Source: Escherichia phage AV125. Taken from it: 64,000 bases of DNA. Position numbers and translations under genes: made by a program. The notes under the pieces were generated by a model. The model did no database searches, had not been told where the DNA came from, and was given only the letters and a program-made list of their open reading frames with translations. The stretch is from sequence record OR352955.1; one strand, 5' to 3'. Of the stretch, positions 17,018 through 60,677 are shown in pieces; the stretch's first letter is position 1, and each line of letters opens with the position of its first letter.

Positions 17018-17437
17018 ATGTTAGGTAAGATCAAAGCCTTTTTCAAACGTATTATCGAAGGAAGTCCAACAGAAGGTGCATTAGGAAGATCTCTAACAGG
17101 AGAACCGCTTGCCATAATTTCTATCAGTCGGTATGGTGGATATTCAATTAAACAAACACCTTTAGGTATAGAAGGTAGTATGCTTTCTTGGACAATATCT
17201 CAAGTTGGTGATAATAGGCTTGCAGCTATAGCATTGCTTCGTGGGGAGTATGACTATTGTTTATCAGCACCTTGTAAAAAGCACCTCATAGAGCACATTA
17301 GAGACAGAGTAGAAAGAGAAGGCGGATACTTCTTCGAAACTAAGAGAAACAAACAAGGAACTCTTGACTTCACTAAGGTTTACTGGGACAATCATACTCG
17401 TCAAACTGTTGAACAACTTCTGGAGGAAAGATGTTAA
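17018..17437 (+). CDS. hypothetical protein
   Basis: 139-aa ORF, RBS AAGGGGGA. Confidence 0.55.
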   Translation: MLGKIKAFFKRIIEGSPTEGALGRSLTGEPLAIISISRYGGYSIKQTPLGIEGSMLSWTISQVGDNRLAAIALLRGEYDYCLSAPCKKHLIEHIRDRVEREGGYFFETKRNKQGTLDFTKVYWDNHTRQTVEQLLEERC

Positions 17438-17640
17438 AAGCTTTTGCTATATACTCTACTGTAGGATTCTTTTATTGGATTATAGTTATTGTTGGATGTT
17501 GGTTAGGTTCTTGTGTTGTGATGGGAGAATGGTTAACATACAATGTATTTGAATGGGATGTAGTTTGTAGATCATTACTTGTTATATGGACTGTTATTGT
17601 TTGTTGGATAACTGTTAGTCTAACATTGGATCTATACTGA
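17431..17640 (+). CDS. small membrane protein (two predicted TM helices)
   Basis: 69 aa, strongly hydrophobic (FFYWIIVIVGCWLGSCVV ... VIWTVIVCWITVSL). Confidence 0.5.
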   Translation: MLKAFAIYSTVGFFYWIIVIVGCWLGSCVVMGEWLTYNVFEWDVVCRSLLVIWTVIVCWITVSLTLDLY

Positions 17641-17933
17641 TTAATAGATGGTAGATAGATGATCATAGTTTATCTACCTTCACTTACGTTTCATACCTCA
17701 CTATCGTGAGTAACATGAAACATTATTATATAGAAATCTACTACTCGCTATCGCTCGTAAACATATGTTTAGGGTACCATATTTTTTTGAAAAAGTCAAT
17801 GCTGATTCACCTATCAATTATCTGTTTAAGATAAGTCTTACCTATCAATCTAACTCTTAACTAGTATTGCACCTATAGTAAGACTATTCCTATAGTTATT
17901 AACCCTCTTCTTCTGTAGAATGTAATTAGATCC

Positions 17934-17962
17934 TTGACAAACTCACAAAGCTTATGTTACAT
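17934..17962 (+). promoter_or_regulatory. possible sigma70-like promoter
   Basis: TTGACA 17934-17939, weak -10 TTACAT 17 bp downstream, upstream of 18001 gene. Confidence 0.35.
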
Positions 17963-18000
17963 TGTGTCTCACAAGTGAATAATACCAAACAGGAGGAAGA

Positions 18001-18216
18001 ATGAGTTCCAATTTTCTATACAAAGCAAAAGATTCACGAGATGGAGAGAACCATTGGTGGTTGATCACAGCAGATGGTGTTATCATCCTACCGTGGGACG
18101 GAGAGACGAAAGTTCAAATACTAGAGAAAGTAAAAGGTGTTAGTTTTAATGTTAGTCATGATATAACAACTTTCAAAGCTTTTGCTATGAATCCTAGTCT
18201 TGTTGCTGAATGGTAA
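18001..18216 (+). CDS. hypothetical protein
   Basis: 71 aa, RBS CAGGAGGAAG; ends ...VAEW. Confidence 0.55.
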   Translation: MSSNFLYKAKDSRDGENHWWLITADGVIILPWDGETKVQILEKVKGVSFNVSHDITTFKAFAMNPSLVAEW

Positions 18217-22804: not shown

Positions 22805-23458
22805 CTATACCAGACTTTGTAGGTATTTGTCAAGGGCTTCTTGATCGCCTTGACAAACATAGCAACGGAAGTCTTGAGCCGAAGGTTGTTTATTTTCATC
22901 CCAGTCCCAATAAACATTACCCTTATAACGTGAACCAGGAAACTCAAAAGAGGCTGTATGTGTAATGTATCCTGGGCCACCAGTGAAATCACAGAATGAG
23001 AATTGGGGGTATGCCGCCTTTACTGCCTCAATAAACCAAGCTTTACGATCTAAAGCTTCATTGATGCTATACGCATGTCTCTCCATTTCTTCCCACGTTT
23101 TCCAGACACTTCTCTCATCAGGAGAAAAGACAAGCCATTCTGGAAGGTATAGAGTGTCATAGTAATCATCATATTCGATCTCGGAGGCGCACGAAGCTGA
23201 CTCCTCCAGTTTTGAGTAATCAAAAGCAGAATATACCCACCAACCATCTTCCAGTAACGCTTTGATAGGGACGAAGCCTTTATCAGCATATTGATCGAAT
23301 TGTTTGACACGGTGGCTTGTGCAGTCTTCAAACTCACATTCTAAACGATATGCACCTTTTCGACGAGCCTCAAGACCGTGTGTACTGAAAATAACAACAC
23401 TTCCTTCACCATCATTACGATCTACTTGATAAGCAACCACTGGTTTTGAATTTGACAT
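22805..23458 (-). CDS. hypothetical protein
   Basis: 217-aa ORF. Confidence 0.55.
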   Translation of the reverse strand: MSNSKPVVAYQVDRNDGEGSVVIFSTHGLEARRKGAYRLECEFEDCTSHRVKQFDQYADKGFVPIKALLEDGWWVYSAFDYSKLEESASCASEIEYDDYYDTLYLPEWLVFSPDERSVWKTWEEMERHAYSINEALDRKAWFIEAVKAAYPQFSFCDFTGGPGYITHTASFEFPGSRYKGNVYWDWDENKQPSAQDFRCYVCQGDQEALDKYLQSLV

Positions 23459-24141
23459 TATTTCTCCTTATCTAGAAGATTGTTAGACAAAAACACTGCA
23501 CGAGCAAAACCACGTGCGGTTAGTGATCTAAGTTGTTTTGTTTTTGCACTAGCTCCACCTAAGCTTTTCCAACCCCAGAAGCAGCCTATATGATCTACTG
23601 GTTTCTTCACTGGTTGAACAAAACCATTGCCGTGCCAAATACAAGTTTTCTTTGTATACCCATCACGGGTAGGCATTTTAGGATGAAAGCTTCCTTCCTC
23701 TTCAAACAAATACCCACCATACTCATAAGGATCAAAGTAAAAATCGGGTTTACGCCATAAGGTTGAAAGTTTACCTACTGGGTTCTCAATCATCCAAGGA
23801 ACATTATATTTGTTACCCAAAGCTTCCACTACACGAATATTAGCTAAAGCTTCATCCAATTCCTCTGTGCTGCGTTCGTGTTTGCTACCACTACCTGCTA
23901 ACATAGTGCAAGGTGGAAATCCAAAAATAATATCGGGTTTAGGTATCCCATGATCTTCAGGGTTGAATGTAGAATCTATCCAGGTATTCACATAGGTTAT
24001 GTTTGGGTGCTCCATCCTAACCTCGTATTTACCGTGATCCCCTTCATCAGCGTTTACACAAAAACACTTGTGACCTGCTTCGGCATAACGTAACACCATG
24101 ATCCCAGATCCGTCAAACATAGACAAAACTGTTTTACTCAT
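23458..24141 (-). CDS. compact cytosine-C5 methyltransferase-like protein
   Basis: Start at ATG 24141 (RBS GGAGGGG); LSMFDGSGIM (motif I FxGxG), GFPPCTMLAGSG (motif IV Pro-Cys), MIENPVG (motif VI ENV-like); only about 227 aa so little room for a target-recognition domain. Confidence 0.5.
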   Translation of the reverse strand: MSKTVLSMFDGSGIMVLRYAEAGHKCFCVNADEGDHGKYEVRMEHPNITYVNTWIDSTFNPEDHGIPKPDIIFGFPPCTMLAGSGSKHERSTEELDEALANIRVVEALGNKYNVPWMIENPVGKLSTLWRKPDFYFDPYEYGGYLFEEEGSFHPKMPTRDGYTKKTCIWHGNGFVQPVKKPVDHIGCFWGWKSLGGASAKTKQLRSLTARGFARAVFLSNNLLDKEK

Positions 24142-36756: not shown

Positions 36757-37749
36757 TTAAATCTTCTTACTCCACCATTGAGGGTTGTTTAAGTACCATT
36801 CAATCGTTGAGTAGAGATCTTGTTCAAATGTAGAGTTTGCACTCCAACCCAGTTCAGACTCTATTTTAGAAGGATTGATTTCATAACGCAAGTCATGTCC
36901 TTTACGATCTTCAACAAAAGTTATCAAGTTGGAAGAAGGGTAGGTTCCTGCTTCTGGATGTACAGCATCCATGTAGTCACAAACCATATAGATGATCTCC
37001 ATATTGGTTTTGGGATTACGTGTTCCAACATTATACGTTTGACCTGGTTCTCCACCTGTTGCCACTTGAAGAATAGCTCGCGCATGATCCTCAACAAAAA
37101 GCCAGTCTCGCACCTGATCGCCTTTACCATACACCGGAATCTCTTTATTCGTCAAGATACTTGTGATGATTTTTGGGATCAGCTTTTCTGGATGTTGATA
37201 AGGTCCAAAGTTATTGGAGCAGTTGGTTATCACAACAGGTAAACCGTAGGTACGGTACCAAGCTTTCACAAGATGGTCAGATGCTGCCTTAGACGCACTG
37301 TACGGGCTTGAAGGGGCATAAGCTGTCTCTTCGGTAAAGGGAACGCCAGAGTCTGCCATATCGCCGTACACTTCGTCTGTGGAGACATGTACGAACATCT
37401 TAAGTTTATTTTTTGGGAGGAGCCTTGCAGCTTCCAATAAATTGTATGTACCAATAATATTGGAGTCGATGAAAACTCGTGGATTCTTGATAGAATTATC
37501 CACATGACTCTCTGCCGCTAAGTGAATGATGAAATCGGGATTGCACTCTACTACTAAACTTTTGACCTGGGTTTCGTTTGCCAAATCTGTTATGCTTAGT
37601 TTAACGTGAGTGATATCGCCTACATTCTCAATATCTGCTGCATAGCCCATCTTATCAACGACAAAAACTTCGTTATTGGGATCTTGACAAAGAGAGCGCA
37701 CCACGGCACTCCCAATAAAACCAAGACCACCTGTTACCAGATAGCGCAT
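36757..37749 (-). CDS. rmlB: dTDP-glucose 4,6-dehydratase
   Basis: [17 protein letters not shown] Rossmann, SDR catalytic YxxxK region, 330 aa. Confidence 0.9.
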
Positions 37750-58112: not shown

Positions 58113-58436
58113 CTAATTAGTGCTATCATCTTTAACCACCTCCAATTGCCTTTCGAGTTTGACTTTGTTTGAGAACTGATAATGACACAACTTACATTGC
58201 ATGTCAACAATCTGATCGTGATTTAACCCTACAATTTTAACTTCCTTTGCACCATCCCACTCCAAATACTCAAAGCCATCCAAATGATTACTCTTGTCCA
58301 ACAGGAATGCTATCTGCTGCCATTCAATCTGAATGTCATTTAAATGATATGCTGCACAGAAGATATCCTCATAGTAAAAGACGATCATTGTCATTGCTTC
58401 GTCCAGCACAACTACCTCTTGTCTTGTAAATCTCAT
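58113..58436 (-). CDS. hypothetical protein
   Basis: 107-aa ORF, first gene of minus-strand block. Confidence 0.5.
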   Translation of the reverse strand: MRFTRQEVVVLDEAMTMIVFYYEDIFCAAYHLNDIQIEWQQIAFLLDKSNHLDGFEYLEWDGAKEVKIVGLNHDQIVDMQCKLCHYQFSNKVKLERQLEVVKDDSTN

Positions 58437-58479
58437 TCTAGCCTCCTAAACGCGTCTCTGACGCACTTTTATATATAAG

Positions 58480-58910
58480 ATGATAAATCACCTTACCTAG
58501 TAAGTGAACTTGCTCTACGAGCCTCTTATGAAGCTTATGTTATAGGCTATACTATTGCTACCTGTTTAAGCAAGGTTTTTGCACACAGAAAATAATTTTT
58601 AATAAAACTCTTGACTTTTCTGTTCGAAGTATGCTACCCTAGAAATCTATTAACGAGCGCAGCGAGTTAAGGTTTTAGGTTGTTGATGTAGTACTCTGTA
58701 CTCAAGTACTGTACTCCGTACTAGATTAATAATTATTAAATATTAATAATAAATAATTATTAGATCTAACAAACAGGTACAGTGTATCAGAACTGGTACG
58801 TACAGATCAACTTCTATCAATTAAAAATAAAATAATAAATTATTATAAATAATACTTGATCTATAGATCAGTATGAAGTACAGTACGGAACATCTTAACA
58901 AGAATGGAGG
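58480..58910. other. AT-rich intergenic control region with GTACT repeats and palindromes
   Basis: Five GTACT copies in about 40 bp near 58690-58730, AT-only palindromic tract, perfect palindrome TGATCTATAGATCA near 58858-58871, TATAAATA (T4 late-promoter-like) near 58843. Confidence 0.5.
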
Positions 58911-58916
58911 TGTGCA

Positions 58917-59102
58917 ATGATTAGCGAGAATCCGTGCAAATGGCATCATGTACCTATTAAAGATTGTATGTCTTGTAATCCACGTTCTATTTATAACATT
59001 GCATCTTATGACGATGACAATGTGTTAGACGATGATGAAGGCTGGGAGGATTTAGATTGGACTGGTTATGAAACCAAAAAGGATAAAATTATTCCTAGTT
59101 GA
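58917..59102 (+). CDS. hypothetical protein
   Basis: 61 aa, RBS GGAGGTG. Confidence 0.5.
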   Translation: MISENPCKWHHVPIKDCMSCNPRSIYNIASYDDDNVLDDDEGWEDLDWTGYETKKDKIIPS

Positions 59103-59139
59103 CTTAAGATATCCTTCGTGCTAAACTAGAAGTGAGGAG

Positions 59140-59391
59140 ATGCCGATCACTCCCCATTTGGGGTTCGAAGGATATATGCAAAATAGTTTTTATTTTAGGT
59201 GCCGTGCTTGTAATAGGCATTTGACAAACCACTCCAGACGTGATAAAAATGGAGTCATCAAGGAATCAGACCTCTGTTCTATTTGCACAGGTTTGGCTTT
59301 TGATGATAGTCCCGAAAGGGTTTATCAGCATCAATGTATAACAGACGTTCTCGTGTCAAACTTGGTAGAGGACGAACAACTAACAGATTAG
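59140..59391 (+). CDS. Cys-rich hypothetical protein
   Basis: 83 aa, RBS GAGGAG; CRACNRH ... CSICTG. Confidence 0.45.
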   Translation: MPITPHLGFEGYMQNSFYFRCRACNRHLTNHSRRDKNGVIKESDLCSICTGLAFDDSPERVYQHQCITDVLVSNLVEDEQLTD

Positions 59392-59399
59392 GAGGAACA

Positions 59400-59648
59400 A
59401 TGTCTCTATTAGAAAAACACGTGTTTGAAGATGGTAACGGCAATGCAGTTTTTCTTTTCCATCCAGAAAAATACACATCTGAAAACAATGGTACAACTTC
59501 TATTGTAATCACTAAAGATGTTAAAGTTATTGATTTCTTGGCTCTGATGCGAGAGATGGATCTTGAAATTAACACTTTTAACGCAGAAGCTTTGGTTGTT
59601 GCTCTTCTGGAAAAGAAAGATAGTGAAGAAGTAGCAGAATATGCTTAA
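59400..59648 (+). CDS. hypothetical protein
   Basis: Start at ATG 59400 (RBS TAGGAGGAA); 82 aa. Confidence 0.5.
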   Translation: MSLLEKHVFEDGNGNAVFLFHPEKYTSENNGTTSIVITKDVKVIDFLALMREMDLEINTFNAEALVVALLEKKDSEEVAEYA

Positions 59649-59655
59649 ATAACTA

Positions 59656-59894: not shown

Positions 59895-59966
59895 GGCCCT
59901 GTAGCTCAATGGGAGAGCTGTCGGCTCATAACCGATAGGTAGCTGGATCGAAACCAGCCAGGGCCA
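59895..59966 (+). tRNA. tRNA-Met (anticodon CAT; could also be Ile2 or initiator)
   Basis: Cloverleaf folded by hand: acceptor GGCCCTG/CAGGGCC, anticodon loop CTCATAA, T-loop ATCGAAA; CCA encoded. Confidence 0.8.
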
Positions 59967-60280: not shown

Positions 60281-60368
60281 GGAAGGGCAAATCGATGTGG
60301 CGACGAAAACGGTCTTGAAAACCGCCGAGCTTGAAAGAGCCTTGGGAGTTCGACTCTCCCTCCTTCCG
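60281..60368 (+). tRNA. tRNA-Ser (anticodon TGA), class II
   Basis: Acceptor GGAAGGG/TCCTTCC, anticodon loop CTTGAAA, long variable arm, T-arm GGGAG-TTCGACT-CTCCC; CCA encoded. Confidence 0.8.
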
Positions 60369-60592: not shown

Positions 60593-60677
60593 GGTGAGTT
60601 AATTCCGTAGGGGTAGCGGGGCAGACTGTAAATCTGTTATCATTGCGATTCGGGTGGTTCGACTCCATCACTCACCA
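60593..60677 (+). tRNA. tRNA-Tyr (anticodon GTA), class II
   Basis: Closely parallels E. coli tRNA-Tyr: GCAGACTGTAAATCTG anticodon arm, long variable arm, acceptor GGTGAGT/ACTCACC; CCA encoded. Confidence 0.8.

Follow-up and report, generated by a model that had tools for sequence, protein, structure and literature searches.

Several described systems resemble parts of the region considered here. Host σ70 promoters of the extended -10 and UP-element classes, such as E. coli rrnB P1 and the early promoters of phages T4 and T5, offer one model. The primary origin of phage T7, which consists of the phi1.1A/B promoters and an AT-rich segment, and the T4 origins oriF(uvsY) and oriG(34), in which a middle promoter is combined with a downstream DNA-unwinding element, offer another. 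Packaging (pac) sites normally lie in the small-terminase gene or adjoin it. We compare these systems with an intergenic gap in Escherichia phage AV125 (sequence record OR352955.1), studied in a window of 64,000 nucleotides, less than half of the phage genome. The gap spans positions 58437-58916, between the ATG of a leftward gene at 58436 (minus strand) and that of a rightward gene at 58917 (plus strand), and so is 480 bp long rather than the 430 bp given in an earlier sequence-only reading. From sequence comparison, we conclude that it is probably the main divergent promoter and leader control region of the phage, served by the host σ70 RNA polymerase. The earlier reading had named an origin, a packaging site or a control site as the usual occupants of such a place. 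A control site it very probably is, with three position-conserved σ70-type promoters at a point of divergence, but the specific motif readings fail.

The argument begins with the layout that the gap shares with its relatives. Homologues of the first leftward gene across the subfamily were used to locate the equivalent gap in distant phages, namely phiWec188 and phiWec179 (divergent Phapecoctavirus), phi92 (Justusliebigvirus), Klebsiella phage phi1_175008 and Citrobacter phage Tr1; 11 close relatives formed a second set. Among the distant relatives, the gap is mostly unalignable, yet the order of its elements is identical: a leftward promoter (PL) with a hairpin in the 5' untranslated region (UTR), a distal rightward promoter (P1), a conserved box, a variable stretch, an A/T tract, a proximal rightward promoter (P2), and the ribosome-binding site (RBS) and ATG of the first rightward gene. 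The order of P1, A/T tract and P2 is retained in five lineages from at least two genera of the Stephanstirmvirinae. P1 is nearly invariant across genera, and PL and P2 keep their positions with lineage-specific hexamers. In all three, the hexamers are 16-18 bp apart, and the -10 hexamer has A at position 2 and T at position 6. The comparison across related genomes that the sequence-only reading had called for upholds the order of the elements but not the GTACT units to which that reading drew attention, as these are confined to the ESCO13/phAPEC8 clade.

PL was found by promoter scan on the minus strand at 58480-58508, where a -35 hexamer TTCACT (58508-58503) is separated by a 17-nt spacer from a -10 hexamer TATCAT (58485-58480). 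Its counterparts at the same place are TTGACA-17-TATCAT in the Klebsiella phage and TTGACT-17-TACCAT in Tr1, and the segment is unchanged in the 11 close relatives. Across lineages, the leftward promoter stands about 45-70 bp from the left gene. The 5'UTR hairpin of that gene, GCGUC-AGA-GACGC on the transcript, is encoded at 58452-58464 (minus strand), just upstream of the RBS AGGAGG (58442-58447). Judged by eye, the stem is GCUC/GAGC in phi92 and Tr1 and thus differs between lineages; by itself, the folding energy of the hairpin is not significant (z = -1.6).

P1 is predicted at 58611-58640 (plus strand) and is composed of TTGACT, an 18-nt spacer and the extended -10 element TGcTACCCT, with a predicted start near 58647. 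Directly 5' of its -35 hexamer, in an UP-element-like position, is a 19-bp pure A/T run (58589-58607, plus strand), the third longest near the gap. The form TTGAC(T/A)-N18-TACCCT with TATGCTACCCTAA is kept in phiWec188, phi92, Klebsiella phi1_175008 and Citrobacter Tr1. The pattern TTGAC-N16-TGNTANNNT has seven matches in the window, P1 among them, against 0.33 expected. The gap resembles the extended -10/UP class in its hexamer spacing of 17-18 bp, in the TGn before the -10 of P1 and in the pure A/T sequence directly 5' of a -35 hexamer, ahead of divergent early blocks. It differs from that class in that its -10 hexamers are of the TACnnT form (TACCCT, TACAGT), its A/T tracts are 36-38 bp long and its promoters are predicted.

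The box CGAGCG(C/A)AGCGAG begins 13-16 nt past the P1 -10 hexamer across lineages, and can be folded into a hairpin near the 5' end of the predicted P1 transcript. An alignment of 11 distinct cassettes and a covariance model place this hairpin, UUAAC-GA-GC-GCA-GC-GA-GUUAA, at 58650-58670 (plus strand), with GAGCGCAGCGA as its core sequence. The core C-GA-GC-G(N1-2)A-GC-GA-G is invariant across genera, and variation falls in the middle and the length of the loop (GCA, GAA, GAUA). As folded, a closing C-G pair is followed by tandem G-A mismatches, two G-C pairs and a three-base loop, to which the window adds the outer arms UUAAC and GUUAA. In the alignment, 84% of cells are paired, compared with 31-51% when the partners are slid. 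The outer stem covaries, with C-G exchanged for A-U, and U-A for C-G or U-G; three pairs are compensatory, and the covariation score was reached by 2 of 500 shuffles. Because the G-U pairs give strand specificity, we interpret the hairpin as an element of the RNA that spans roughly +4 to +24 of the predicted transcript. The leader as a whole also has a folding z of -3.8, but this value stems from the self-complementarity of GTAC and of the A/T palindrome and hence is not counted as evidence of structured RNA. No intrinsic terminators were found between P1 and P2.

Among known hairpins, lambda nut boxB, HK022 put and the E. coli ompA hairpin come closest: the P1 hairpin likewise lies within the first ~25 nt, has an invariant core with a covarying outer stem and is reused at more than one unit. 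The tandem G-A mismatches, the 2-bp stem and the GNA or GNNA loop set it apart from them, and no Rfam family matches it. When IMG/VR was searched by pattern and GenBank phages by BLAST, the promoter-plus-box cassette turned up twice per genome, and the covariance model likewise finds exactly two copies in the window. The second copy is at 17745-17803 (minus strand), where TTGACT-N18-TGgTACCCT is followed by a leader hairpin with a four-base GAUA loop; Justusliebigvirus and Klebsiella-type relatives have second copies as well. The second cassette has no A/T tract. The reuse of promoter and hairpin at a site that lacks one argues that they form a reusable expression module and not a device specific to an origin.

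The proximal promoter P2 occupies 58856-58884 (plus strand), with TTGATC (58856-58861), a 17-nt spacer and TACAGT (58879-58884). In phi92, phiWec188, the Klebsiella phage and Tr1, a counterpart of the form TTGAC(T/C)-N17-TAnnnT stands downstream of the A/T tract. The tract itself, pure A/T and 30-38 bp long across lineages, directly precedes P2. In the window, this is A/T tract 2 (58819-58854, plus strand), 36 bp that abut the P2 -35 hexamer at about -37 to -72; a pure A/T tract stands in its place in all five lineages compared. By its position, it could serve P2 as an UP-element-like or curved tract, and it is also a candidate for a DNA-unwinding element.

The description of the gap as holding a run made almost only of A and T proved accurate, and there are in fact two pure runs: A/T tract 2 and the 38-bp A/T tract 1 (58725-58762), an 18+18 near-palindrome that forms the second part of a clade-specific insertion discussed below. 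The next longest pure A/T run in the 64 kb is 20 bp, and by our own arithmetic the chance expectation for a run of at least 36 is about 0.615^36 x 64000, or ~0.002. The lowest-GC windows of 120 and 200 bp in the 64 kb also fall in the gap. In phi92, the equivalent tract is 35 bp, against 22 bp for the second longest in 50 kb, and the lowest-GC 120- and 200-bp windows are found there too. Between the two tracts of the window lies a middle segment (58762-58809) with AGATCTAACAAAC (58762-58774), whose counterpart in phi92 and Tr1 is GATCTAACAGAC, with GTAC at 58777, 58796 and 58800 and with two GATC sites.

This arrangement invites a comparison with origins of replication. P1 (58611-58640) is aimed into the AT-rich elements at 58725-58762 and 58819-58854. 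By analogy with the T7 primary origin or T4 oriF/oriG, RNA polymerase from P1 would enter the easily unwound tracts, and its transcript or an R-loop would prime synthesis or open the duplex for a T7-like primase-helicase and a PolA-type polymerase. A transcription-activated origin of this kind would be compatible with a promoter hub, so that the region could be an origin or also be one; we regard this as unlikely, while taking it seriously. Speaking for it are the placement of a strong, conserved P1 80-175 bp upstream of the longest A/T tracts (of 64 kb here and of 50 kb in phi92), the lowest-GC windows in both phages, the retention of the promoter-into-tract arrangement across genera and a cumulative GC skew minimum at 58-59 kb. 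A T7-like (gp4-like) primase-helicase and a PolA-type polymerase are present in rV5, a related phage for which no origin is defined (PMC3606486). The likeness to T7 extends to this replisome in relatives, and the likeness to both T7 and T4 to a promoter directed into the part of the genome that is richest in A/T and most easily melted. On the other hand, the switch in GC skew coincides with the switch in gene orientation, which makes it uninformative about an origin, and GC skew is treated in the same way in the rV5 paper (PMC3606486). The P1 cassette is not unique, as the copy at 17745-17803 lacks an A/T tract, the tract always abuts the P2 -35 hexamer, for which an UP-element role is simpler, and there is no initiator gene and no conserved iteron. 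The gap further differs from the T7 and T4 origins in that its promoter is of host type and occurs twice per genome, and in that its A/T tract, 80-175 bp downstream, is at the same time the region upstream of P2; the likeness is one of layout.

The same A/T tract contains the word TATAAATA (58844-58851), which the sequence-only reading took for a box of the T4 late-promoter type. The box is present at that place, but it is not enriched, lies inside an A/T run and is absent in three relatives. As a T4-type late promoter, it would drive the rightward tRNA and structural genes, a role that its exact match to the T4 late consensus, its position upstream of a block that runs to the terminase and the occurrence of the word at the equivalent place in the Klebsiella relative would suit. 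We consider it extremely unlikely. The word is embedded in pure A/T sequence, its count on this strand of the window is near chance (three, where base composition gives about five by our own estimate), and it is missing from the homologous site of phi92, Tr1 and phiWec188, three of the four relatives compared. Moreover, an ordinary -35/-10 pair stands immediately 3' of it, with the predicted P2 start about 40 nt downstream. Phage rV5 is reported to have no homologues of gp33, gp45 or gp55, and a different late motif, TggTAaAAtA, has been proposed for its relatives (PMC3606486).

P2 also accounts for the 14-bp perfect palindrome reported in the gap. The palindrome TGATCTATAGATCA is there (58857-58870), with a single occurrence in the window, yet it is not conserved as a palindrome and amounts to the P2 -35 hexamer and half of the spacer. 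The -35 half is unchanged in the 11 close relatives, whereas the right arm is altered to AAATCA in phAPEC8, AGATTA in UP17 and Schickermooser, and AGATGA in EP57. A GATC is found within the P2 -35 hexamer or spacer in five of six lineages, at differing positions, and P2 could be sensitive to the state of Dam methylation.

The most conspicuous feature of the gap is its cluster of GTAC sites. The five GTACT units that had been placed within about 40 bp are indeed present and lie within 32 bp (58691-58722), with starts at 58691, 58698, 58706, 58711 and 58718 and hence spacings of 7, 8, 5 and 7 bp. Altogether, 10 of the 63 GTAC sites of the window fall in 58691-58886, where 0.4 are expected (Poisson P ~2e-11), and as many as 10 were not obtained in any of 20,000 shuffles of the gap. 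The sites at 58878 and 58883 overlap the P2 -10 hexamer and start region, and AGTACAGTAC (58877-58886) is the exact reverse complement of GTACTGTACT (58706-58715) in the array. In relatives without the cluster, the gap has 0-3 GTAC, at most about twice the density of the flanks.

The array and A/T tract 1 belong together. The segment 58690-58761, with the five GTACT units as its first part and the tract as its second, is a ~72-bp insertion restricted to the ESCO13/phAPEC8 clade, and it splits sequences, AAGGTnTTAGGT and TTAGATCTAACAGAC, that are contiguous in Tr1 and phi92. The array does not occur in phiWec188, phi92, the Klebsiella phage or Tr1. Among GenBank phages, array and tract are confined to 64 records of the clade; the 95-nt stretch that holds both is 100% identical in 41 of the 64 and at least 95% identical in 59. 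A search of IMG/VR for the array with its exact spacing gave no matches. BLAST found no match to array and tract in 5,426 E. coli genomes, which indicates that they are not derived from the host. Since the GTACT units are not conserved outside the clade, they cannot be the core of an ancestral origin. With iteron origins, such as those of lambda and of phage P4 (8-bp repeats), the gap shares direct repeats beside an AT-rich tract, but its repeats have a 5-bp core with irregular spacing of 5-8 bp and no adjacent initiator gene, and the four relatives in which the remainder of the region is kept do not have them; no domain could be recognised in the flanking genes.

Regarding the source of the insertion, A/T tract 1 with the following TAGATC is 72% identical over 39 nt to A/T tract 2 with its TAGATC, a resemblance that makes a partial duplication of the P2 upstream region probable. 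On its 3' side, TTAGAT...GTACAGT resembles a dead partial copy of P2 with a spacer of only 12 nt. Between the P1 hairpin and the array is a slippage-prone stretch of TTAAGGTTT type (58667-58689, plus strand), the copy number of which varies in UP17, Ro121lw and anhysbys. The insertion as a whole probably arose by local duplication and slippage. It is then possible that array and tract are a functionless by-product of these events, carried along in a young clade, although we hold this to be rather unlikely. The 72% identity and the dead echo of P2 would fit such an origin, as would the variable TTAAGGTTT copy number, the loss in dw-ec of exactly two units between repeats, the point change in phAPEC8 and the absence of the array from relatives and from IMG/VR. 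What does not fit is that 10 GTAC sites are kept in 200 bp and are identical in 41 of 64 isolates, unexpected for neutral DNA in a genome otherwise purged of the motif (observed/expected 0.35). GTAC also occurs at places that were not duplicated (58796/58800 and the P2 -10 hexamer), and irregular spacing around a strict GTACT core is unlike simple slippage of a single unit.

Three known operators were compared with the array by eye, and none fits. For the TrpR operator (GTACT-N8-AGTAC), the spacing of the array is wrong; the half-sites do not suit LexA boxes; and two units match the NarL heptamer (TACYYMT) at six of seven positions without forming a 7-2-7 pair.

The purge of GTAC is a property of the whole window. 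GTAC is the rarest of the 256 tetranucleotides relative to expectation, with 63 observed against 178 (Markov) or 224 (base composition). Four palindromic tetranucleotides are strongly avoided, with observed/expected ratios of 0.35 for GTAC, 0.40 for CCGG, 0.40 for GGCC and 0.50 for CTAG; GATC, at 0.97, is not avoided. The profile of phi92 differs (GTAC 0.68, CATG 0.50), which suggests that lineage-specific restriction avoidance lies behind these tetranucleotide profiles. GTAC-specific restriction-modification in the natural hosts would fit as its cause. Loss of GTAC by deamination of 5-methylcytosine was considered and rejected, because ATAC (1.0) and GTAT (1.06) show no excess in observed/expected. 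The only other local cluster in the window, six sites in 200 bp at 37250-37448, proved unrelated to that of the gap: it falls within the rml-cluster gene for dTDP-glucose 4,6-dehydratase (36757-37749, minus strand). That gene, where GC content is higher, may be a recent acquisition unadapted to the avoidance of the motif.

One relative differs from the others at these sites. BI-EHEC (OL505078.1) differs at 30 of 51 aligned GTAC sites genome-wide and almost always has ATAC or GTAT instead, that is, a C-to-T change on one or the other strand. For control tetranucleotides, the share of differing sites is 3-11%, and Schickermooser departs from the window at 1 of 43 GTAC sites. The BI-EHEC assembly was made from nanopore reads only, with Guppy 4.0.11, Flye and Medaka (PMC8686590), and we therefore read the differences as base-calling error at a modified base in GTAC. 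If this is true, the record holds systematic errors, amino-acid changes included. The phage dw-ec, from the same laboratory and pipeline but isolated against enterotoxigenic E. coli, keeps all of its remaining GTAC sites in the gap, so that the modification seems to depend on host or isolate. A 227-amino-acid open reading frame (ORF) at 23458-24141 (minus strand) carries motifs like those of cytosine-C5 methyltransferases (FDGSG, FPPC, ENP) and the GenBank label 'Dcm domain'; it is present in Schickermooser and BI-EHEC, whereas the homologous 50 kb of phi92 lack it and carry another methyltransferase at that place. This ORF was rejected as a phage GTAC methyltransferase, as it has no Pfam match and M.HaeIII matches at only E = 0.13. 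Given that dw-ec, sequenced in the same way, is free of GTAC miscalls in the gap, a host enzyme is at least as likely. The conclusion that the gap is a promoter hub does not need this chain of reasoning.

A more ambitious proposal is that the GTAC cluster is a dedicated switch, read by a protein or through the methylation state of GTAC (and of GATC), and that the leader hairpin is an undescribed cis-regulatory RNA of the Stephanstirmvirinae; taken together, we judge this improbable. Under such a switch, GTAC would probably have been purged genome-wide under pressure from host GTAC-specific restriction-modification, and the cluster would gate either the initiation of replication at the A/T tracts or the replacement of P1 by P2 in transcription toward the tRNA genes and the structural genes. 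By analogy, it would work like the Dam-site clusters of oriC or of the pac site of phage P1, with a different motif. The likeness to such GATC clusters, which also occur in Dam-regulated promoters, consists of 10 GTAC and four GATC sites in AT-rich DNA and of the single nanopore-only assembly that miscalls GTAC genome-wide, as for a modified base. The differences are that the motif is GTAC, which is avoided elsewhere in the genome, and that its modification is putative.

Returning to the promoter hub, the elements suggest the following course of events. PL would start the leftward early and nucleotide-metabolism block through a short 5'UTR hairpin, and P1 and P2 would act rightward in tandem, with P2 about 245 bp downstream of P1. 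P1 would be a strong extended -10 promoter whose transcript opens with the invariant hairpin (GA-GC-GNA-GC-GA core), which could serve as a 5' stabiliser or as a recognition element for a protein or RNA polymerase. The 36-bp A/T tract upstream of P2 is in the position of an UP element or curved tract. In the ESCO13/phAPEC8 clade, the spacer between P1 and P2 has gained ~72 bp, its array adding to five more GTAC to give the 10-site cluster, which might act as a set of binding or modification-sensitive sites that modulate read-through from P1, the activity of P2, or both.

A number of observations weigh against this reading of the gap. PL matches the consensus at only 9 of 12 positions, the P2 hexamers TTGATC and TACAGT are only moderate matches, and a pure A/T tract of 36-38 bp exceeds the length that a canonical UP element needs. 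The array varies, with dw-ec short of two units through a repeat-to-repeat deletion and phAPEC8 carrying one GCACT, and because relatives that keep the remaining layout do without it, the region does not need it for its basic function. Among the neighbouring genes (Pfam, PHROG), none could be identified as coding for a DNA-binding protein that would recognise the array, and no transcript-start, protein-binding or expression data for the subfamily were found in the literature searched. An additional origin function, compatible with a promoter hub, is possible as well.

Packaging offers a last alternative, in which the clustered methylatable palindromes would make the region a pac site for headful packaging, as in phage P1. 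We think this very unlikely. Ro121lw, of the same species, was called 'P1-like headful with pac site' by PhageTerm, but the call was published without coordinates (PMC6454146). The gap does contain four GATC in 104 bp, TGATCT and AGATCA elements included, but the number of GATC sites in the gap ranges from 1 to 8 among lineages. The large-terminase gene is ~4.7 kb downstream; a pac site, however, is usually located within the small-terminase gene or beside it, rather than 4-5 kb upstream past a tRNA cluster. The first position of the GenBank record of nieznany is within the gap, where A/T richness makes assembly difficult, and the records of other isolates start at scattered places or adopt the phAPEC8 convention. 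Being inconsistent among isolates, record starts were set aside as a clue to pac. The nieznany record (MN850598.1) both starts and ends inside the gap near A/T tract 2, and its ends are most likely an assembly break in A/T-rich DNA and not a real genome end.

The wider setting is that of a common phage type. The 2.5 kb around the gap are 99.6% identical to Escherichia phage ESCO13 and have about 150 matches among GenBank phages, nearly all of them Phapecoctavirus (Stephanstirmvirinae). Phages of the phAPEC8/ESCO13 type are widely isolated as candidates for therapy and biocontrol, and no mapped promoter, origin or packaging site was found for them in the literature searched. The analysis provides coordinates for three predicted promoters, a promoter-plus-leader-hairpin cassette of use in engineering and the most plausible place to seek an origin. 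As far as we found, neither the cassette of promoter and GNA-loop hairpin nor the clade-specific clustering of GTAC in a genome that avoids it has been described before, and their functions are putative. The paradox of a motif avoided genome-wide and clustered here could reveal a trade-off between restriction avoidance and regulatory sequence in a virulent phage.

The genes on either side switch orientation at the gap, in agreement with the divergence described in the sequence-only reading, except that the right side opens not with the tRNA cluster but with three small ORFs (58917-59649); the tRNA cluster begins only at 59895. To the left is a long minus-strand block that begins with small hypothetical genes (in the ESCO13 and Schickermooser annotations) and further on holds genes for RNA ligase, polynucleotide kinase, DNA ligase, exonucleases, thymidylate synthase and ribonucleotide reductase, and the rml genes. 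To the right, on the plus strand, the three small genes are followed by ten tRNA genes, more small genes and then the large terminase. The first rightward gene, annotated as encoding 61 amino acids, belongs to a PHROG family of unknown function and has its RBS GGAGG and ATG at 58906-58919 (plus strand). All small genes that flank the gap are in PHROG families of unknown function and have no Pfam domain; our impression is that they fit early genes.

Within the gap, two short frames were considered. A 42-amino-acid minus-strand ORF was rejected as a gene, as it lacks an RBS. A 15-codon upstream ORF (MKYSTEHLNKNGGVQ) at 58872-58919 (plus strand) ends in a TGA that overlaps the first rightward ATG (ATGA); it has no RBS and would be carried by P1 transcripts only, and it is therefore probably untranslated. 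In phiWec188 (2573-2785), phiWec179 and PsgM04F, the gap contains an extra 71-amino-acid gene on the minus strand with its own extended -10 promoter, TTGTGT-N17-TGcTATAGT. The stretch at ~58530-58590 of the window is a degenerate, indel-prone remnant of the promoter region of this gene. The 'repeat_region' features in the nepoznato, anhysbys and tuntematon records carry no note and were dismissed as 55-bp automatic calls on the A/T tracts.

A scan with the covariance models of Rfam 15 gave no match within 58437-58916 at E <= 1, and over 57.5-62.5 kb it returned tRNAs only. Two of the matches in the tRNA cluster have no ARAGORN call: one at 60593-60677 (plus strand, 39 bits, above the gathering score) and a tRNA-Sec-like one at 60281-60367 (plus strand, 35.7 bits, below it). 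They may be further tRNA genes or pseudo-tRNA genes.

The surroundings of the second cassette, 17688-17963, form a second divergent promoter region. On the minus strand, the cassette (17803-17745) is followed by a second, longer hairpin (17721-17688) and runs antisense toward the 3' end of a 69-amino-acid membrane-protein ORF (17431-17640, plus strand). In Justusliebigvirus, the same P1-type cassette is upstream of a genuine membrane-protein gene; in the window, its product may instead be a small or antisense RNA. On the plus strand, TTGACA-N16-TGTTACATT at 17934-17963 precedes a gene that starts at 18001 and is, as predicted from its sequence, the promoter of that gene.

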